From a bacterium (lineage in GTDB: Bacteria; Patescibacteriota; Gracilibacteria; BD1-5; JAGOOR01), in NCBI GenBank assembly GCA_031973055.1, contig DALYDS010000001.1:1-48147 (forward strand): 48,147 nt of DNA, given 5' to 3'. The notes beneath the pieces were generated by a model, which saw nothing but the letters and a program-made list of their open reading frames with translations, ran no database searches and was not told the DNA's origin. Shown here in pieces: positions 2,921 to 18,577 of the stretch. The position numbers and the translations under genes were made by a program. Each line of letters starts with the position of its first letter. Position 1 is the first letter of the stretch.

Positions 2921-2946
2921 AAAAAAAACCTCTGCAGATGCAGAGG
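2921..2946 (-). terminator. intrinsic terminator/attenuator 12 nt upstream of the ilvA start codon
   Basis: The minus RNA reads CCUCUGCAUCUGCAGAGG followed by U8 (hairpin 2929-2946, U-run 2921-2928). Confidence 0.7.
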
Positions 2947-2972
2947 CGAGAAAATATGATGACAAGAAAATA

Positions 2973-3029
2973 TTATCCCTCTGCGTGATGCGAAGCGATA
3001 ATAATAATCATGTTTTGACGAGATGTCAT
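2973..3029 (-). promoter_or_regulatory. Ile-rich leader peptide ORF (MTSRQNMIIIIASHHAEG, or MIIIIASHHAEG from the second ATG at 3011)
   Basis: atg aca tct cgt caa aac atg att att att atc gct tcg cat cac GCA GAG Gga taa. The GCAGAGG just before the stop duplicates the 3' arm of the downstream terminator and can pair with its 5' arm CCUCUGC, forming an antiterminator. Confidence 0.55.
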
Positions 3030-5609: not shown

Positions 5610-8600
5610 TTATTTTGTAAGACTTATGTTAACCACAAAACCTTCATCGAGTTCGACTTCTTTCGCACCTCCTTCATTTTTCATACCAATAGTACAGAGT
5701 GTTTCTTTCTCAATCATACTCTGATGTTTTTCCAGAATCTTACCAAGCATATCATTGTCTGAAGTAAGAGCGAGTTGGAGCCTGTCCATTACTTGGAATC
5801 CGAGTTCTTTTCGAGCGTCCTGAATACCACGAATCATGTCACGAGCGTAGCCCTCAAAGGTAAGTGCTTCGTCGAGCGTTGTATCGAGACCAATGACATA
5901 ACCAGCACTACCAGCAAAGGCGATTGTTGAACCAGATTTTGGTGTGTAAACTGCCTCAAATTCATCGGCTGCGAGAATAACAACTCCATTTGGTGCTTCT
6001 GGGACCGTGAGCTCAAGAGTTCCTTCTGGAGTTAAGTTTCCCTTCCCTGCTTTTGCGTCCGCGATAATCGTTTTCATCCACTGTTTTCTCTCGGTCGCTC
6101 CGATTTTTTTCGCATCTGGAGAATAGGTAATCGTGACGTAGTCTGAGACATCACCTACGCTGTGTATTTCCTTCACGTTTAATTCTTCAGCCAGCGTCTC
6201 ACGTGCACTATCATCGAGAGAGAGTGTTATCGTCGCTGCTCGAAGTGGTTGTCGGACACGGAGTTTCTCACGACCACGAATCGCGAGACCGAGATTCGTG
6301 AGATTTTGGAGGTCTGTCATTTTCTGATTTACGTCGAGATTGATGAGCTTTTTGTTTACTACTGGGAAATCCGTGAGGTGCACTGAATCCGTCGTATTCA
6401 TGAGATTCTGATAGAGATGCTCAGTGATAAATGGACAGATAGGTGCGAGGAGTTTGGTCATCGTGACGAGGACTTCATGAAGTGTCTCGTACGCACTCTT
6501 CTTATCTGCATCGAGTTCACTTCTCCAGAATCGACGACGATTACGTCGGATATACCAGTTATTGAGACCATCGAGGAAGACCATGATAGCATCACAGGTT
6601 TTCTGGAGATCATAAGCGTCCATTGAAATTCTCGTGTCTTGAATCAATGTATGGAGACGAGAAATAATCCAGGTATCGAGTTCGTGAGTTTTTGGAGTTG
6701 AATAATCCGTGAATTCCCATCCGTCGATATTGGCATAAGTGGCAAAGAAGGTGTACGAATTCCAGAGTGGAAGCAATACACGTTTGATTGATTCTTGAAT
6801 ACCTGCTTCTGAGAACGTCATATCTTCGCCCTTCATCAGCGTCCCACCCATGAGGTAAAAACGAATGGCATCTGCACCATATTTCTCAATCGTTTCACGA
6901 GGATCTGGATAATTGCCGAATGATTTACTCATCTTACGTCCATCAGTTCCGTTGATGACTCCTGTCACTGCCACATTTTTGAAGGCTGGTGATCATTTGA
7001 CCATCACACCAATCGCGTGCATCACATAAAACCACGCACGAATCTGCCCCGTGTATTCTGCGATGAAATCCGCTGGGAAACTCGCCTCCATCTTCTCTTG
7101 ATTTTCAAATGGGTAATGCACTTGCGCATACGGCATCGAAGCACTATCCATCCACACATCGAGGACTTCGGGGATGCGACGGAGTGGAGCACCGTGGAGG
7201 ATGACGCCAGTGATAAGTTGGGAATATTCGACATTGAAATGTCCCGCACCATTAATAGTCACACATTTCCCACCTGTTGCCTCTGCGACATTTTTCCCAG
7301 AAGTATGTGGAACACCGGGATCATCTTCACAATTGATAACAATGATTTCGTCGACATGATTTCGTAACTCTTCAAAAGTATAAGTAAATTGTTCTTGTTC
7401 AACTTTTACCAAAGCTCCTCGAGTACTTGCTTCGTATCGAGGTGCAACGAGAATCATTTTTTTGACATGAAGTCAGTGAGAGATGATATATTGTCTCGCT
7501 GTTTTTGCACCCATAGAGTGTGTCACCCACGTATCATAGCTCGCGATATCGAGACCGTCAAAGACCTTTTCCCAATTTTTGTAGTCTACAGCTTCGCCCT
7601 TCTCAAAAAATGGAGCGTCCATATGAATACCTTCTCTTGCAAGAACTTCTTTGGTTTTCTCAAAGAAATCAACAACATTGCCATGTTTATTATATCCATG
7701 AACGCCGAGTACTTTTTTTGGTTTTTCTGATGTTCCTGGGAGAAATACGCGGTCAATATACGGTCTATGGAGATTGATTTCTTTACCGGTATTGTTGTCG
7801 AGATAGAGCGGAATTGCTGTCGCTTTTGATGGAAGAGGTATTCCTTTTCAGAAATATTTTTTGCCAGATAAATGTTCGAGGATGAGTGCTATTTGGTCAG
7901 CATGGCTCACAACAATAACTGTTTTTCCTGGATATTTCTTTGAGATGTCAGTAATAAAATCCTTCATACGGACCAAAATATCATTGGCAGATTCACCACC
8001 TCCTGAAAATCTAAAGTCTCTATCCGTGAGATATTTATCATGTGCCTCGTCGTATTGTGACTGAATTTCTTTACGTATTTTTTGATCCATATCTCCCAAA
8101 AATACTTCTCGCAGACGATCATCATACTCTATATCGAGTTTGCAAAATTGATTGATTATTTCTGCCGTTTCCTGGGTACGTGCAAATGGAGAAGAAAAAA
8201 TAGCATCGATTGATTCTGATGTGAGACTTTCGCCAACTTTTTCCGCATCTGCCTTTCCTTTATCGGTCAGAGGAAGTCGTGGCTTATCACTTCCATCGAT
8301 AATACCGAGCGTATTTTTGAGACTCTCACCATGACGAACAAAGATAAATTTGGTTATCTGCCCAAGTGGTTTATTTCTCTGATACAATTCTTCGCGAGAA
8401 TCAATAACGACACGCTCGCTTCCATCAGTATTTTGCCATACTGGCATCGGCGTTCCCCAAAAACGAGAACGAGAGATACACCAATCTGGAGCAGATTCGA
8501 GAGATTTCAGGAATCGTCCGTGCTTGAAGTGATCTGGGAACCAATTGATAGATTCGTTCTGTGCGATGAGTTCTGATTTAATTCTCTGGATATCGATAAA

Positions 8601-10328
8601 CCATGACTTCTGTGCTTTTTGCATCAGTGGAGTATTGCTTCGAGGACAGTACGGAACGCGGTGCGTTATACCTTCTTTTTTGAAGAGTTTCCCTTCTGTC
8701 TTGAGTCGCTCCGTGATAGGATCGATAGCATCGATGTAGAGTGTACCTTGGTAGTCTGGGACTTGTGCGGTATATTTCCCTGCCTCATCAATCGCAGACG
8801 TGATGAAAATCCCCTCTTGCTTCGCGAGCTGGAAATCCACATCACCAAATTCTGGTGCTTCGTGGGCAATACCAGTACCATCAGTATCGGTGACGAAGTC
8901 GGCGTGGTAGACTTTGAAGTTTTTATCATCAATTTTCCCGACGTAATAATCAAATGGCGGATGATAATATTTACCAACCAAAAATGAACCAGGATACTCG
9001 GTAAGAACAGTAAAATTTTTCCCTTTCATGACTGTTTCAAGACGGTTTTTCGCGACCAAATAACCTTCATCTTCAATTTGCACTAACACATAGGTCAGAT
9101 CATTATGAACCGCAATTGCCATGTGCATCGGTATAGTCCATGGTGTCGTTGTCCATGCGAGCAATGATATATGTTTGAGTTCAGGTAATTTCTTCTCGAT
9201 AGCACGGAGAGCAAGCGCATCATACATCCGACCAAGCTGTTCGGTAATAATATGCTCACCATACTGGAGATAGTATCCATGAACGAGTTCTGGATCGTCT
9301 ACGATTTTCATCCACTGCATCTGAGCGTGTTTTTCTGGTTCTTGAATAGTTGGATTTGATAATAACTCAACTTCGAAATATTCCCCTTGCCACAAAGTAC
9401 GCTGAGTAAAAACTTTTCGATTTCAGAGATGTTTTCTGATGGTTATTTCGACTCAGAGTTCTTCTTTTATTTCTCTTTTGAGAGCCGTTTCTGCAGTTTC
9501 GCCTGCGTCAATTTTGCCACCAGGACACTGCCATGTATTTCAGTGTTTTTTATTCTGGAGCATGAGAACTTCACCATCAGCATTTCGGATAACAGCGAGG
9601 ACATATCGAAGATATCCGTCATCTGTATATTCAAATTTTCATCCCTGCACCTCGTCCTGTTTTGAAGTGTCTTGTGTGAGTGGAAATTTCACGGTAATAG
9701 CTGGATCCTGGACGTCCTGATAGCTGTCATCCATCGCGATTTCAAAGTTTGAAATCGGAGTCGAGAGCTTCCAAGAATACCATGAAACACGCTTTCCTTC
9801 GTAGATATAGCCTTTCTCCCAGATTTGCTTGAAAACCCACATCACTGACTCCATATAGTTCTGATCCATCGTGCGGTATGCATAGTCCATATCGACCCAT
9901 CGACCAATATGATCGATATACCATCCCCACTCAGATGAAGTGTCACGTGTATAATTATAACATTCATCGATAAATCCCTGGATTCCTCCAGCTGATTCCT
10001 CGATTTCTTTGTTTGATTCGAGTCAGAGTTTCTTCTGTACTTTTTGCTCAATAGGAAGTCCGTGACAATCCCATCCCCAGACACGTTCAACGCGCTTTCC
10101 GAGCATCGTTTGATAACGAGGCACGACGTCCTTAATTATCGAAGATAACAAGCTTCCATAATGCGGAGTTCCGGTGATAAATGGAGGACCATCGTAAAAT
10201 CGGTACGGATTCTCAGCTGACCTGGATTCGACTGACTTTTCAAACGTTTTATTTTCCTTCCAGTATTGGAGGATAGATTCTTCGAGTTTTGAGAACTCGG
10301 GTTTTCATTTGGGGAGAGAGAAGGGCAT
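5610..10328 (-). CDS. ileS: isoleucine--tRNA ligase (type 2-like core) carrying three in-frame inserted hydrolase domains; 1572 aa
   Basis: Track fragments 5610-6974, 6993-7457, 7848-9395 and 9639-9890 are all in one frame. The gaps contain only TGA stops; I located at least nine. ATG is at 10326-10328 and TAA at 5610-5612. Core motifs appear in order: PHYGS (HIGH), [87 protein letters not shown]. Confidence 0.9.
7190..7712 (-). other. alpha/beta serine-hydrolase domain (YdeN/RBBP9-like) inserted in IleS between 'LHRPYIDRV' and '[10 protein letters not shown]'
   Basis: [13 protein letters not shown]..., nucleophile elbow THSMGA (Ser at 7515-7517), NCEDDPGVP (Asp), INGAGHF (His). Confidence 0.7.
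7790..8370 (-). other. histidine-phosphatase (phosphoglycerate-mutase-like) domain inserted in IleS after 'WGTPMPVW...SREELYQRN'
   Basis: [14 protein letters not shown] (RHG motif), ...[11 protein letters not shown]..., ...[11 protein letters not shown] (second catalytic His). The normal 'LHRPYID' follows about 30 residues downstream. Confidence 0.75.
9168..9638 (-). other. Nudix hydrolase domain inserted in IleS between 'VKFPL' and '[10 protein letters not shown]'
   Basis: Complete Nudix box [22 protein letters not shown][G]V (GX5EX7REUXEEXGU). Its invariant Gly is encoded by UGA (9453-9455). Confidence 0.8.
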
Positions 10329-10495
10329 AAAAAAACACACAAAATAAACTGTGTGCTTCGGTCTCGATATTCTCGAGAAGTTACCACCGAAAGCGGTACT
10401 TGATTTATCTGCGTCACGTGCAGTGGTCGGAGGGGTCTACTTTAATTAAATTTCTTCCCTCAGCTCGTCCTGTGATAGCAGGAGTCAGTGCTGAT
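10329..10495 (-). promoter_or_regulatory. T-box-like leader of ileS (Ile specifier AUC)
   Basis: Minus-strand RNA elements:
- Antiterminator-like element GCUUUCGG-[UGGUAAC]-UUCUCGA-GAAUA-UCGAGA-CCGAAGC (10355-10394). It matches the T-box architecture helixA1 / 7-nt bulge UGGNACC / helixA2. UGGU is complementary to ACCA of tRNA-Ile (A73).
- Competing helix GAAGCACACA-guuuauuu-UGUGUGUUUU plus U-run, ending at the ATG (10329-10360).
- Short hairpin CCUG-CUAUCA-CAGG (10469-10482) presenting AUC followed by A. Confidence 0.6.
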
Positions 10496-10501
10496 AGAGG
10501 C

Positions 10502-10529
10502 AGTATACAAACTCTCGGCGTATTATCAA
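10502..10529 (-). promoter_or_regulatory. candidate sigma70-type promoter for the ileS leader
   Basis: Minus strand TTGATA (10524-10529) -N16- TATACT (10502-10507), just downstream of the stop of the preceding gene. Confidence 0.45.
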
Positions 10530-10533
10530 GTTA

Positions 10534-14076: not shown

Positions 14077-14316
14077 GTTGAGCTGTCCTAAGTGACGCCA
14101 TACGTCCTCACAAAATAGATACGTTAGTATCCTTCTATCACATACTATACTGATAGAGCTATAGGGTACGGAGCTGGTGAATACTCCTCAACTCACCACA
14201 GGGGATGGCACAACACTGATATACGAGTATGGTTCGTATTGTCCATGAGACCTTTTCCTAGCCAATCGTCATCGACACTTGTTATGACTGAGGGAGCCGA
14301 GAAGAGGTCTTTTTTA
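14077..14316 (+). ncRNA. candidate structured small RNA of unknown family (about 240 nt)
   Basis: The region has a promoter upstream and no open frame in any of the six table-25 readings on the + strand. Several local helices:
- CTATCA/TGATAG at 14138-14159.
- ATGGCACAA...TTGTCCAT enclosing ATACGA-gtatggt-TCGTAT at about 14206-14256.
- A 10-bp closing helix AGACCTTTTC/GAGAAGAGGTCT followed by TTTTTT at about 14258-14316.
No downstream + strand gene, so it is not a leader. Confidence 0.4.
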
Positions 14317-15642
14317 TTGCAAAGACTTCGTGATGAGGGTGTTGTTTTCGACACTGAGAATCCCGACGATTCATCGTCAATACTTCACCTCATAATATCC
14401 ATCTTCTTGCTCAAAATGAGCTTTTTTATTATTCTGGATATCTCCCCATTGCTCTGTCGTGAGCTCTATTTTGGGAATTTGCTCCGTTTCAGCAATAGCC
14501 CACAGTAGATGATGTGTAGGAGTAAAGGTATTTCATCTGATAGAACCGAGACGCATGCCTCCGTGGACGAAATAAAAATACTCAGCGAGTGGACCGAGAT
14601 TTCTCTGATTGAAATACGCGCCATCTTTTGAGAGATACAGATATCCATCCTTTAATTTTGTTTTGAGATGTTTTGAGACAAACCGTTCGACGATTTCTCT
14701 CTCCCCTTTTGTCGCTGGCTTCACAATCAGATTTTTCTGCCCCTGCGCTGCAAGTATAGGATAATCGTGGTGGACATCAGCAGAAGATTTTTTCTGAAAA
14801 ATAGATGCGAAAAATCCGCCAGTATGCTCTACATGAGGCCAGAAACGTTTTCGGAATAATTCGAGCAATTGTGGTTCTTCAATTTTTAACCTTGAATCGA
14901 GTACTTCTTCGTTTTCCATGACATTGAGTGTGCAGGTCGAATACGAGAGTGTGCCTCCTGAGGCCGTCACGGCTTCAGCTGTTTCCATGAGCTGCTTCTG
15001 GAGTTTCGCAATACGATCAATGTTTTTCTCATGCCAGTGGTCGACGATGGCGCTATCACGAAATGCTGTACCCTCACCGCTACAAGGTGCGTCGAGGAGG
15101 ACCGCATCAAAAAAACCAGGAAAATTTTGGAAAAATCGACCATCACATGAGACAACTGCGACATTGTCATAACCCATACGGTCGAGATTGTCGAAGAGTT
15201 GTGGCGTACGAGTCCGATTCACTTCGTTGGCGATGATGAGTGATTCTGGGAAATAGTCTGCGAGCTGTGTCGTTTTCCCCCCTGGTGAAGCACACATATC
15301 GAGAATCTTATCTGGTTGATTCGTGATATGTTTTTTCAGAAGATAGGGTGGATGCGCGGCAGCAACTTCTTGGATATAAAACCAACCGGCAGAGTGCTCG
15401 ATTGTACGACCGAGGGCTACGGTTGTATCGTCACGATCTATGAGAAATACTTCGGGAATATCAGTATCAGTCAGTGTCCAACCTTGTTCTTTTGCATGGA
15501 TTTTGAAATTTTCTAGAGAGATTTTTCGAGTATTCACACGTATACTTTTCCCAATGGGTTTAATCATCGCAGTAATAATCTCATCTGCTTCAGTAGAAGA
15601 GAAACCAAATATTTTCTGGATGTAATCGGAAAAACGAGACAT
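14314..15642 (-). CDS. rsmF: rRNA cytosine-C5 methyltransferase, RsmF/RsmB (NOL1/NOP2/Sun) family with C-terminal extension domain
   Basis: SAM-binding motif ILDMCASPGGKTTQLA and catalytic motifs DAPCSGEG and YSTCT. The track ORF 14533-15642 ends at TGA. Table 25 adds 72 codons to TAA 14314-14316. Confidence 0.8.
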
Positions 15643-15728
15643 ACGTGGATTGTAGTGATTTTTCTGAAAATTCTAGAAACAGCGGATAGAAATTGACAAA
15701 TTATTAAAAATAATATCTTAGTATTATT

Positions 15729-16285
15729 ATGAAACCATCTATAAGTAAAATGGCTATTGTATCTCCTAGCCGAGAAGTAATTTGATGAGCCATCGAAGGT
15801 CCAAACCAGGTGCTCTGAATAAAAAAATTCAAAGAAGTCATTTGAGAACTGACTCTTCAGGAAAGGCACTATAAAGATAGAAGAGGCTACTCCCACGAAG
15901 CTCTTCTACAAAAAGCAGTTTGTGTCATTCATCCAGACTCATGAACTGTTCTTACTACTCAAGGAAATGATAATTCTTCTATATTAATTACCGGGTCAGG
16001 CAAAAAAGATTTTAGAGATATAGTCACAGAAAAAACAAGTGGACTCGAAACAGGTATTGCTGAGCAAAATTTTTGAGAGTGTTACGCTCTTACAGAGGAT
16101 TATAAATGACCTCTCTACGTATTTCACACTCGAATCGTTATAGCTCATACGCAAGGAGCTGTTACTTCTCTCATTGGTCATACAACATCTTGGAAGAATC
16201 CTCAAAAAGCCATGGAACAGGTCGGAGCAATGGAAAAAAACATAATATTATGGCTTGCTAATGAGATCCAAAAGAAGCGAAACTA
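15729..16285 (+). CDS. hypothetical protein, 185 aa (invisible in standard code: 8 in-frame UGA)
   Basis: ATG 15729 to TAA 16283-16285 with only TGA interruptions. MKPSISKMAIVSPSREVIGGAIEGPNQVLGIKKF...AVCVIHPDSGTVLTTQGN... The track lists only antisense shadow ORFs here. Possibly a degenerate Nudix-like fold, with low certainty. Confidence 0.5.
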
Positions 16286-16298
16286 AAGTTCTTAAATA

Positions 16299-16326
16299 TT
16301 GTAAAAAAGAAAAAATAATCTATACT
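16299..16326 (+). promoter_or_regulatory. candidate promoter for the proB leader region (leaderless geometry)
   Basis: TTGTAA (16299-16304) -N16- TATACT (16321-16326). The ATG of the first mini-ORF lies 6 nt downstream. Confidence 0.4.
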
Positions 16327-16332
16327 CAGCTC

Positions 16333-16389
16333 ATGTTCTGCAACCAAAACATCTCAGTTCCGCCATACCTCAACTTCATGAAGAGGTAG
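16333..16389 (+). promoter_or_regulatory. mini-ORF 1: MFCNQNISVPPYLNFMKR (Pro-Pro leader peptide candidate)
   Basis: atg...gtt ccg cca tac...atg AAG AGG tag. AAGAGG is complementary to CCTCTT in the 5' arm of terminator 1. Confidence 0.45.
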
Positions 16390-16414
16390 ATTATTATATA
16401 TTTTTAATTCAAAA

Positions 16415-16439
16415 TCCCTCTTCAACAGAGGGATTTTTT
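16415..16439 (+). terminator. intrinsic terminator 1 (attenuator candidate)
   Basis: TCCCTCT-tcaac-AGAGGGA followed by TTTTTT. Confidence 0.75.
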
Positions 16440-16445
16440 ATTGCT

Positions 16446-16508
16446 ATGAATCATATTTTTCAAATCACATTACCCGTTCCTCCGCTTCTCTTCTCTCCCA
16501 AGGGGTAG
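16446..16508 (+). promoter_or_regulatory. mini-ORF 2: MNHIFQITLPVPPLLFSPKG (Pro-rich leader peptide candidate)
   Basis: atg...tta ccc gtt cct ccg ctt...tct ccC AAG GGG tag. CAAGGGG can pair, with one bulge, with CCCTCTTG, the 5' arm of terminator 2. Confidence 0.45.
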
Positions 16509-16535
16509 CTTTTAAGTACTCAATATTCTTTTCAG

Positions 16536-16567
16536 CCCTCTTGTTACACAAGAGGGTTTTTATTTTT
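16536..16567 (+). terminator. intrinsic terminator 2, 14 nt upstream of proB (attenuator candidate)
   Basis: CCCTCTTG-ttaca-CAAGAGGG followed by TTTTTATTTTTT. Confidence 0.75.
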
Positions 16568-16580
16568 TACACAACTATTT

Positions 16581-17336
16581 ATGAACAAAACTATTATCGT
16601 CAAAGTCGGCACAGAATCTCTCGCAAATTTTCACACGAGCGTAAAAGTAGGCAATATGGTCAGAGATATAGCTCGACTTATGCGAGAAAAAATCCGCGTC
16701 GTACTGATATCTTCTGGAGCAGTCGGATGTGGCAAGGAAATACTCTGATGAGACAAAAATAACCAAGTATATGCTAGTGTGGGACAACCAGTGCTGATGG
16801 GGCGTTATGCAGAGAAATTTCAAAAGCGAAAAATCGTCACAGCGCAAATTCTCCCAACTCATGCTACGCTCGAAGATATAGAGAGTCATCGAACTCAATT
16901 TATACGCACGGTCAACGATATTATCGAGGCTGGAGTACTCCCAATTATCAACGAAAACGATGCACTCTCGACCGCAGAAATGCAAGCCCTAGGAAGAGGC
17001 GCTGATAACGATCAAAATGCTCTCCTCATAGCCCGTATACTCGGAGCAACAGACATCATCCTCCTTACAAATACTAACGGTGTTTATCGTGATAAAAATG
17101 ATAGTTCTTCGAGAATAAAAATACTCAGAGCTAAAACAATTACCGACGAATGGATACATCGAGTTTGTGGGGGGAAATCGGCGAGCTGAACTGGTGGCAT
17201 GCAGTCAAAAGTAATCATTGGAAGAGAATTTGCGAAAAATGGTGGAGTGACACATGTGTGTGATGGTATACATTCGACGGTCTACGAGCACGCTCTGGGG
17301 AGAGATATTCACGGTGGAACTCATATAAAAGTATAA
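16581..17336 (+). CDS. proB: glutamate 5-kinase (short form, no PUA domain)
   Basis: MNKTIIVKVGTESL..., ISSGAVGCGKEIL[G][G], ASVGQPVLMGRY, INENDALST, S[G]TGGMQSKV. 251 aa with 3 in-frame UGA. TAA at 17334-17336. Confidence 0.85.
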
Positions 17337-17372
17337 ATTTACATTCATATTCTTTGCGATACAATCCTCCCG

Positions 17373-17855
17373 ATGAATACATTTGTCACTACAACTGATA
17401 AAGACGGTGGAACTCACGAGGTAGCTATTGCTGACCTTGTCTGGAGACCTGCTGCATACGGAATTATTATCCAAGAAGGTAAGATTTTAATGGTGCCACA
17501 ATGGGATGGTTACGACCTCCCTGGTGGTGGTATAGATATCGAAGAATTAGGAGAAAAAGCAGTCGTTCGTGAGGTAAAAGAAGAAACTGGCTTGGACGTC
17601 ATAGTTGATACACTGATAGCTACTCGTGAGAGCTTTTTTACTTTCAGGAAAAAAGGAAAACACACGCACTCTATTGCGTTCTACTATACTGCTCACGTTG
17701 TTGGTGGGGAGCTCTCTGAAGAGGGTTTTGTCGGTGGCGAAAAAGAATATATGCATCTGGCTGAGTGGATACCATTGGAGAAATTCCACGAACTCACGAT
17801 ATATAGCTCGATTGATATCAAGCCAATTATCTTAAGTCTCATCTCTAACACCTAA
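17373..17855 (+). CDS. Nudix hydrolase
   Basis: Nudix box GGGIDIEELGEKAVVREVKEETGLDV. 160-aa ORF ending at TAA. Confidence 0.85.
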   Translation: MNTFVTTTDKDGGTHEVAIADLVWRPAAYGIIIQEGKILMVPQWDGYDLPGGGIDIEELGEKAVVREVKEETGLDVIVDTLIATRESFFTFRKKGKHTHSIAFYYTAHVVGGELSEEGFVGGEKEYMHLAEWIPLEKFHELTIYSSIDIKPIILSLISNT

Positions 17856-17866
17856 TTCTCTTTTCT

Positions 17867-18577
17867 ATGTTCTCATTCTTCAAAAAATCACACGAAGCAA
17901 CTCCACAAGAGACGAAGCTCGTCATCCTCGTCGCACTCTATATATTCTGCGTCATCATGACTGAGACACTCGGCGTAAAAACATCTCCAGTTGGAAACAT
18001 TTCGCTCCACTTCGGACCAATAAATATTCCGCAGTTGAAAGTTTCTATGGCTATATTTTTTATTCCTTTTATTTATTGCATCAATGACGTATTAGCACAG
18101 GTCTGGGGGTACAAAACAGCCCGAACAGTTTACCGTATTTCACTCTTTTCTATTGTTGGTCTCGCTTTTTTCTCATGGCTCAGCACATCTTTGCCTGCCA
18201 GTATGATTTTTGTCGATAAAGAAGCAGCTTTTGATACGATTTTTGGTCAGACACTCCGTTTCTCTCTCGCCAGCATCGCAGCATTCGCTGTCTCGGATAT
18301 ACTCGACGTGATTATATTTTGCCGTCTTCGTGATAAATTAAAATGAAAATCGCTCTGGCTCTCAACGAACCTCTCCAATTTTATCTCTCAAGGAATTGAT
18401 GGCGCCCTCTTCGTCTATCTCGCGATGTATACTCCTGGAACAGAATCATTCTGGGCTGGTAATCACGCATTTATGTGGTGAGTTATTCTGCCATATTGGG
18501 TATTCCGATGCTGCATGAGTATCTTTGCGACACCTCTCGTCTACGCAGGAGTAAAATGGGCAAAAGGCTCAAAATAA
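17867..18577 (+). CDS. yhhQ: queuosine-precursor transporter family (YhhQ/DUF165, VUT family)
   Basis: Multi-pass membrane protein with ...IPFIYCINDVLAQVWGYKTAR... and ...SQGIDGALFV... The track ORF 17867-18346 is extended through 2 UGA to TAA 18575-18577 (236 aa). Confidence 0.65.

Follow-up and report, generated by a model that had tools for sequence, protein, structure and literature searches.

The question raised by this locus is why a gene resembling proB, which would encode glutamate 5-kinase, should stand behind two strong intrinsic terminators, each of which follows a short open reading frame (ORF) with consecutive proline codons. The gene lies in a 48,147-nt stretch of DNA from a Gracilibacteria genome (contig DALYDS010000001.1; hereafter the window), and the leader studied here comprises positions 16299-16568, which hold two tandem modules of short ORF and terminator. 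An earlier sequence-only reading had proposed that tandem Pro-codon leader ORFs govern the choice between terminator and antiterminator before proB, and this proposal is supported here, above all by conservation in relatives. We think it probable that tandem, paralogous, ribosome-mediated transcription attenuators tie proB expression to the availability of prolyl-tRNA(Pro).

The leader starts with a sigma-70-like promoter-like site at 16299-16326 (+), composed of TTGTAA (16299-16304) as the -35 element, a 16-nt spacer and TATACT (16321-16326) as the -10 element. The gap between TATACT and the ATG of leader ORF1 (ATG1) is 6 nt, from which a leaderless leader transcript had been proposed; this idea has held up, given the TTGTAA at 16-nt spacing and the retention of the -10 box, 6-7 nt upstream of ATG1, at all nine loci of the closest group of relatives (clade A, below). 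Transcription would start at or beside the A of ATG1. ORF1 (MFCNQNISVPPYLNFMKR, 16333-16389, +) has its Pro codons, CCG CCA, at 16360-16365 (codons 10-11), and is followed by the intrinsic terminator T1 (hairpin 3:4), with a stem-loop at 16411-16437 (+), a U6 tract reaching 16439 and a stability of -13.4 kcal/mol. ORF2 (MNHIFQITLPVPPLLFSPKG, 16446-16508, +) carries the Pro codons CCC (16473-75), CCU CCG (16479-84) and CCC (16497-99), and terminator T2 follows with a stem-loop at 16534-16558 (+), a T-rich tail to 16568 and -15.2 kcal/mol. Twelve nt separate the end of T2 from the proB ATG. Thus, the coordinates first given for the two mini-ORFs were exact, and both terminators are present, with limits slightly corrected to 16411-16439 and 16534-16568. 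The regulated gene itself (16581-17336, +) specifies 251 aa under genetic code 25, with an AA_kinase domain and no PUA domain.

These elements stand out from their surroundings. T1 and T2 are the two best terminator-like sites in 15500-17500, an interval with three such sites compared to 1.0 +/- 1.1 in shuffled sequences. Strong terminators are rare across the 48-kb window: ordinary ones follow rplT and rpmA, two are bidirectional, and the remaining ones lie directly upstream of ilvA, proB (two) and the gene for an isoleucyl-tRNA synthetase (IleRS). The segment 16333-16572 folds at -48.6 kcal/mol versus -32.5 +/- 3.9 kcal/mol for dinucleotide shuffles (z = -4.1), and Pro-Pro occurs in just 3% of the 234 ATG-initiated mini-ORFs of 15-25 codons in the window, which is the chance rate. 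The two modules align with each other (z = 4.8) and, judged by this similarity, are paralogues that arose by tandem duplication, not independent inventions. The sequence-only reading had counted three independent instances of the layout, these two and one upstream of ilvA; only the ilvA leader is truly separate.

The plainest account of such a region would be ordinary terminators and chance ORFs, with T1 ending the upstream gene, T2 being a redundant or spurious hairpin and the Pro-Pro codons a coincidence. In the window, a co-directional gene of 185 aa that matches no family (15729-16286, +) does end 125 nt upstream of T1, and T1 would inevitably stop its read-through too. However, five relatives (L001, L085, L086, L089 and L098) lack this gene, so that the leader adjoins a divergent rsmB/F-like gene, and still keep ORF1 and T1 intact; consequently, T1 is not merely the end of an upstream gene, an alternative that the first reading had left standing. 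In addition, a conserved promoter is located between the upstream gene and T1, and in another relative, L091, a separate terminator serves the upstream gene and precedes the leader promoter. Taken with the low chance values for Pro-Pro mini-ORFs and folding energy, and with that for the antiterminator described below (p < 0.002), these observations leave an explanation by chance scarcely credible.

The two modules can each form mutually exclusive structures, as the first reading had anticipated. In module 1 the antiterminator (2:3, 16379-16424, +) pairs UGAAGAGG at 16379-86, within the last codons of ORF1, with CCUCUUCA at 16417-24, which comprises the T1 5' arm and the first loop bases. This gives eight perfect pairs and a best duplex of -13.6 kcal/mol, a value reached by 0 of 500 dinucleotide shuffles (p < 0.002). 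In module 2 the corresponding pairing (16499-16543, +) joins CAAGGGGU at 16499-16506 to GCCCUCUUG at 16535-43 with one bulge, at -10.8 kcal/mol and a shuffle p of 0.04. Hence the earlier claim that the codons just ahead of the stop are complementary to the terminator 5' arm holds perfectly for module 1 and imperfectly for module 2. When the 3' arm of either terminator is withheld, the minimum free energy (MFE) fold pairs the last ORF codons with the terminator 5' arm.

The first reading had missed a 1:2 hairpin, the third element, which starts at the Pro codons or directly after them. In module 1 this candidate anti-antiterminator or pause hairpin (16366-16388, +) is formed by UACCUC (16366-71) and GAGGUA (16383-88), starts directly 3' of the Pro codons, and is present in the ribosome-free MFE fold, the centroid structure and the consensus fold of seven relatives (columns 34-39/51-56). 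In module 2 it is the Val-Pro-Pro codons themselves, GUU CCU C (16476-82), that form the hairpin with GGGG-UAGC, close to the stop. With this hairpin, the leader has the full 1:2 / 2:3 / 3:4 arrangement of a trp-type attenuator.

We then folded the modules under constraint, assuming that a ribosome covers ~15 nt 3' of the first P-site base. Without a ribosome, the 1:2 hairpin and the terminator formed in all 18 intact clade A and B modules. When the A site held a Pro codon, the 2:3 antiterminator formed, at -11.6 and -10.9 kcal/mol in the window and at -18 to -20 kcal/mol in clade B, and with the ribosome at the stop codon the terminator alone remained (again 18/18). Thus the antiterminator excludes the terminator and is masked by a ribosome at the stop codon, and the 1:2 hairpin, which in clade A is weak, sequesters region 2 (the stop-proximal segment) unless a ribosome occupies the regulatory codons. 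On the whole, this pattern also holds for the clade C modules and L104; in L108 and L104 the ribosome-free MFE fold is without a clean 1:2 hairpin plus terminator. The segment that pairs best with the terminator 5' arm falls between -18 and +7 of the stop codon in each of the 18 clade A and B modules tested; it overlaps the last codons or the stop, and it does so with helix sequences that differ wholly between clades.

The sequence elements, alternative pairings and geometry are those of a leader in which the position of a translating ribosome selects the RNA structure. In the mechanism that we infer, RNA polymerase would start at or beside the A of ATG1 and a ribosome would begin ORF1 on the leaderless transcript. 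When Pro-tRNA is plentiful, the ribosome would reach the UAG stop and cover region 2, allowing 3:4 to form and ending transcription at T1. When Pro-tRNA is scarce, the ribosome would stall with a Pro codon in its A site, region 1 would be covered or melted and region 2 left free; region 2 would then pair with the terminator 5' arm before the 3' arm is made, giving read-through. If no ribosome is present, both 1:2 and 3:4 would form and transcription would terminate. Transcripts that read through T1 would meet the homologous ORF2/T2 module and repeat the decision. Since escape into proB would need two successive stalls, a lower basal level and a sharper response would be expected in vivo.

Conservation of the mini-ORFs and their Pro codons in relatives had been chosen beforehand as the test of the proposal, and it is here that the evidence is strongest. 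The comparison includes ~25 leader modules from 18 distinct Gracilibacteria loci, found through proB homologues at 43-75% protein identity plus a search with proS. Clade A consists of the window, L001, L002, L003, L085, L086, L087, L089 and L098 (proB 56-75% identical) and clade B of L007, L091, L092 and L095 (proB 46-48% identical), while clade C (L102, L106, L107 and L108) and L104 were found via ProS. A metagenome scan with a proB alignment mostly gave distant proB genes of other phyla (77 of 80 loci), the patterns being too generic; of the remainder, L005 is identical to L002, L006 has no upstream DNA and L007 was useful. The ORF, a Pro cluster (PP, PPP or PxP), the stop-proximal antiterminator and the terminator are kept over the ~25 modules in three contexts, namely before proB, before proB-proS and before a small ORF followed by proS. 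The ATG, frame and stop are likewise kept, with frame-preserving indels, and a terminator lies between leader ORF and gene in 23 of 25 modules.

Within clade A, the Pro-Pro of ORF1 is invariant at nine of nine loci with synonymous variation of its codons (CCG CCA / CCC CCA / CCT CCT), and T1 is also kept in all nine. Module 2 is more variable: it is intact with PVPP in the window, L002, L089 and L098, intact with PVPL in L087, and decayed in L001 (PVPS and a degenerate T2) and L086 (PIPR, T2 lost). L003 and L085 have a single module whose 5' half is like module 1 and 3' half like module 2; by sequence, these look like fusions of the two. The module 2 antiterminator of L089 is perfect (CAAGAGG/CCUCUUG, -14.1 kcal/mol, p < 0.002), the L003 antiterminator has a compensatory change from U-A to C-G (CGAGGAGG/CCUCUUCG), and another, from G-C to C-G, distinguishes modules within the clade. 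RNAalifold on seven two-module leaders recovers the hairpins with a covariation term of ~0, because these sequences are too similar; the covariation evidence comes instead from comparing clades and paralogues. Between clades, the helix is unrelated: (U/C)GA(A/G)GAGG : CCUCUUC(A/G) in clade A and CGACUCUCGA : UCGAGAGUCG in clades B and C.

Clade B loci have one module, with peptides such as MYIRTNLVLISFSPVPLSTLER and MTKTTFAYLVPTPLSTLER, a strong 1:2 hairpin of 8 bp (CCUUUCGA-CUC-UCGAAAGG) that begins inside the second Pro codon, a 10-bp antiterminator and a terminator of -20 to -22 kcal/mol. Here proS directly follows proB and scores 368 bits on TIGR00409, above the cutoff of 306.7. The clade C leader peptides end in LLPVPLPTL(G/S)R (L102 and L107), LVPPPLRTLR (L108) or LLPVLLSTLR, with one Pro (L106), and that of L104, with proS directly downstream, in LVPPPLSTPGR; each of these five leaders has a terminator and a TTGACA-16-TACTAT-6-ATG promoter. 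The L104 leader ORF (144-209, MNLKEILLTYLVPPPLSTPGR) contains an in-frame TGA that code 25 reads as Gly and that lies two codons ahead of its TAA stop; with the standard code, the ORF would stop earlier, placing a different RNA segment under the terminating ribosome. Clade C leaders precede an ORF of 80-92 aa and then proS. This small ORF (MSKHSVHQLQSRDLDLYHDICHSN...), which has no Pfam match, is seen between Pro leader/terminator and proS in L102 (384-662), L106 (403-663), L107 (420-662), L108 (383-661) and L111 (379-633), and appears to be co-regulated with proS. A scan upstream of proS in more distant Patescibacteria (L112-L181) turned up ordinary upstream-gene terminators and nothing else. 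On this sampling, the leader appears to be confined to Gracilibacteria.

The Pro cluster is the sole peptide feature common to all clades, as PP in module 1, PVPP or PVP in module 2, PVP or PTP in clade B and PVP or PPP in clade C. Since proB and proS are likewise the only downstream functions shared, the element is tied to proline. Four of the six Pro codons in the window leader are the rare CCG or CCC, which make up 17% of the Pro codons in the long ORFs of the window (binomial p = 0.009), and classical attenuators often contain rare codons.

A ribosome-dependent element of this kind could nevertheless fail to sense proline supply: intrinsic stalling on Pro-Pro could report elongation capacity or elongation factor P (EF-P) activity, or provide a fixed timing delay. 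PP and PPP, found in module 1 and two clade C leaders, are intrinsic stall sites where slow peptide-bond formation is relieved by EF-P, and two studies on Salmonella (PMC5299641, PMC6460261) document EF-P dependence of Pro-codon leaders at mgtA and mgtB. However, the whole layout is kept in clade B and in several clade C leaders where the motif is PxP (PVP, PTP), not one of the classic EF-P motifs. Furthermore, proB and proS are the only genes to which the element is linked, and the rare Pro codons fit sensing of tRNA supply. Both readings could hold together; the proB/proS link and the PxP variants favour proline supply, and we regard a leader that ignores supply as unlikely.

The leader is also more conserved than a leader peptide alone needs. 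Among two-module relatives, nucleotide identity is 80-90% for the leader, 64-77% for the proB coding sequence and 44-61% for the 60 nt upstream, so the leader is apparently under stronger nucleotide constraint than the gene. The high conservation of 16333-16580 against L087, L002, L089, L098 and L001 covers the stop-terminator spacers as well. L087 is extreme, with a leader 89% identical and a ProB protein 56% identical to those of the window. Extra constraints, such as pause sites or a function in trans, or else recombination are possible reasons.

This conservation, spacers included, would be expected of a riboregulator that works without translation, with hairpins switched by a protein, a tRNA (as in a T-box) or a small ligand and the mini-ORFs incidental; moreover, some conserved 'leader peptides' of Actinobacteria proved not to be classical attenuation (PMC1262725). 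The weak coding signal of ORF1 and clade B points the same way. In module 2 of relatives with intact T2, 9 of 13 variable sites fall at third codon positions and there are six synonymous codon changes in frame versus one to two out of frame, a moderate coding signal, whereas for ORF1 and clade B we claim none because substitutions are too few. Against such a riboregulator, the ATG, frame, stop position and Pro codons persist in the ~25 modules even though the helix sequence has been wholly replaced, the Pro codons change synonymously, and the stretch from ATG to terminator (~80 nt) is short and mostly unstructured upstream of the Pro codons. In addition, no Rfam family reached its gathering score anywhere in the window, including the leader families Trp_leader, His_leader, Leu_leader, Thr_leader and Phe_leader and the T-box (RF00230). 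A permissive scan of 16200-16700 gave no T-box at E <= 10 and returned only sub-threshold matches (anti-hemB, OrzO-P, PyrR and others) that represent terminator-hairpin noise. We therefore hold a translation-independent switch to be distinctly improbable.

High nucleotide conservation could also mean that the terminated leader transcripts (~107 nt and ~235 nt) are themselves the product, acting in trans as small RNAs or serving as micropeptide messages, with attenuation secondary. The attenuator-derived rnTrpL and peTrpL of Sinorhizobium (PMC6614838, PMC7298713) are a precedent. However, there is no evident target or partner, the peptide changes freely from clade to clade outside the Pro cluster, and the position directly upstream of proB or proS is kept in all contexts. 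For these reasons, a primary role in trans seems very improbable.

Returning to attenuation by proline supply, several observations weigh against it. ORF1 has only two regulatory codons, the minimum among classical attenuators. The 1:2 hairpins of clade A are short (6 bp in module 1) or G-U rich (module 2), and the module 2 antiterminator of the window only marginally beats shuffles. In thermodynamic terms, the stability of each terminator roughly equals or exceeds that of its antiterminator, and so the model relies on co-transcriptional kinetics. The Pro cluster is reduced despite an intact terminator in L087 (module 2, PVPL) and L106 (single Pro), and the coding signal, as noted, is weak outside module 2. 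A ribosome whose A site holds the second Pro codon would, in clades B and C, hide a portion of region 2 and leave -4 to -6 kcal/mol, so that only the first Pro codon is ideally placed. Four proB relatives (L004, L093, L096 and L097) have no leader. Lastly, the best family of the 16581-17336 protein is indeed proB (TIGR01027, E 5e-42), as the sequence-only reading had called it, but its 144 bits fall below the curated cutoff of 186 bits, and the identification is therefore probable and not certain; no proA or proC adjoins the proB-like gene at any locus examined, and none was seen in the accessible genome fragments.

How does this leader compare to known systems? With the E. coli leaders of trp (trpL), hisL, leuL, thrL, ilvL and pheL it shares a short ORF with cognate codons and three overlapping hairpins, the selection of a hairpin by the ribosome's position on the regulatory codons or stop, and control of the first enzyme of a pathway. 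Like the proB leader, trpL has two adjacent regulatory codons. Unlike these systems, the leader is cognate to proline, belongs to a code-25 member of the Gracilibacteria, within the candidate phyla radiation (CPR), that lacks Shine-Dalgarno (SD) sequences, has an apparently leaderless ORF1 and tandem modules, and matches none of the Rfam leader families by sequence or covariance model. By its predicted layout, the proB leader is an instance of trp-type ribosome-mediated attenuation; the mechanism is not new, and what appears to be new is its use for proline, in the CPR, on a leaderless message and in tandem paralogous modules.

Mycobacteria have leaderless, cysteine-rich leader ORFs that act as attenuators, largely without a canonical intrinsic terminator; in both cases a leaderless ORF carrying cognate codons stands before amino-acid genes, whereas phylum and amino acid differ. 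The physiological logic is shared with Bacillus subtilis proBA and proI, proline-biosynthesis genes controlled by T-box riboswitches, where an intrinsic terminator is relieved when tRNA(Pro) is scarce or uncharged. These riboswitches work without translation by binding the tRNA itself, and the proB leader has no T-box signature in Rfam.

The closest precedent for Pro codons as a sensor is the mgtCBR leader of Salmonella, where Pro codons 10-11 of the 17-codon mgtP are necessary for sensing proline limitation (PMC3641672). A version of mgtP in which all but the Pro codons and the stem-loop C sequence is scrambled still responds (PMC3641672). The mgtP/mgtL ORFs and ORF1 are similarly short (17 and 18 codons), with consecutive Pro codons at 10-11(-12), and translation selects between stem-loops in both; both leaders have two tandem attenuators, mgtP responding to reduced Pro-tRNA(Pro) (PMC3641672). 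The mgt leaders differ in several respects: the genes that they control are for Mg2+ transport and virulence, one of their tandem ORFs senses ATP and the other proline while both proB modules would sense proline, and their ORFs are SD-dependent and lie inside a long 5' leader; there is no homology to the proB leader, and the resemblance is functional only. The clade B and C leaders recall E. coli pheM-pheST, where a tRNA synthetase gene is likewise under a leader ORF with cognate codons, in a different lineage and for a different amino acid; the window itself has proB, not proS, downstream. Leader-peptide control of pheST and of Streptomyces trpS/leuS is cited in PMC1262725. In the literature searched, coverage of which is incomplete, we found no leader-peptide attenuator for proline biosynthesis and no attenuator of any kind in Gracilibacteria or Patescibacteria.

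The genome setting agrees with a leaderless leader. TGA is read as Gly in the window (genetic code 25): table 25 yields 30,964 aa in ORFs of 100 aa or longer and table 11, with which the ORFs are fragmented, 11,697 aa, and ORFs of rpoB/rpoC size appear under table 25 only. Neither ORF1 nor ORF2 has a TGA in frame. None of the 25 confident genes of the window has an SD-like motif at -18 to -5 (background 11%), and many of the 25 starts have a -10-like hexamer 6-8 nt upstream of the ATG, which suggests that this genome relies as a rule on leaderless mRNAs and on initiation without SD sequences. Because SD sequences are absent and -10 boxes lie near ATGs, the leaderless start of ORF1 and SD-independent starts of ORF2 and proB in A/U-rich, unstructured RNA would fit this genome.

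Around the leader, an RsmB/F-type methyltransferase gene (14314-15642, -), assigned by synteny with Pfam-annotated relatives, precedes the 185-aa gene, and 294 nt separate the latter from the proB-like gene. Downstream lie genes for a Nudix protein (17373-17855) and a queuosine-precursor transporter (17867-18577). Across loci, the neighbours of the proB-like gene are Nudix, the queuosine-precursor transporter or proS.

A separate attenuator, for isoleucine, precedes ilvA (1707-2909, -) at 2928-3029 (-). Its leader ORF (2973-3029, -; MTSRQNMIIIIASHHAEG) has four consecutive Ile codons, and its last codons, GCAGAGG, are the same as the 3' arm of the terminator at 2947-2928 (-), giving the same stall/stop folding logic. 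This leader is conserved (MTSRHNMIIIIASHHAEG) in L100, which lies on the contig that carries the proB of L002.

Elsewhere in the window, a 1,572-aa IleRS-like ORF (5610-10328, -) has an unusual aminoacyl-tRNA synthetase architecture in which tRNA-synt_1, Anticodon_1 and DUF5915 domains are accompanied by internal insertions of NUDIX (aa 241-342), the histidine phosphatase domain His_Phos_1 (662-823) and Ser_hydrolase (935-1034). The region upstream of it (10329-10533, -) contains a terminator-like hairpin (10359-10332, -11.7 kcal/mol) with a U-tract, 3 nt from the start codon. Upstream of the hairpin are CGGUGGUAAC and CUAUCAGC motifs reminiscent of a T-box, and no mini-ORF. A T-box was suspected here from a GGUGGUA motif and rejected when Rfam gave nothing at E <= 1; the hairpin may be an undescribed or highly divergent ileS riboregulator.

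Gene regulation in CPR/Patescibacteria is almost unexplored, and these bacteria are usually pictured as metabolically minimal symbionts. One could extend the findings to a family-wide 'proline regulon' of Gracilibacteria run by leaderless leader peptides, in which 70S ribosomes load on a 5'-terminal AUG fast enough to couple with RNA polymerase, tandem modules form a multiplicative gate that offsets having just two regulatory codons, and terminated leader RNAs have an extra function in trans or in pausing; as a whole, this extension seems doubtful. If true, it would be the first evidence of classical transcription-translation coupling and attenuation in the CPR, and on a leaderless mRNA. The leader would be a compact, testable sensor, and its link to proline backs the annotation of the divergent glutamate-5-kinase-like gene. 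Before this, leaders with Pro codons had been described for genes of Mg2+ transport, and T-boxes for tRNA(Pro) at the proline genes of Firmicutes; proline would now join the short list of amino acids with biosynthetic genes attenuated by leader peptides. Attenuators on proB/proS and ilvA would imply that these bacteria monitor their charged-tRNA pools, with tight coupling of transcription and translation, on leaderless messages that lack SD sequences and are read with an altered genetic code.

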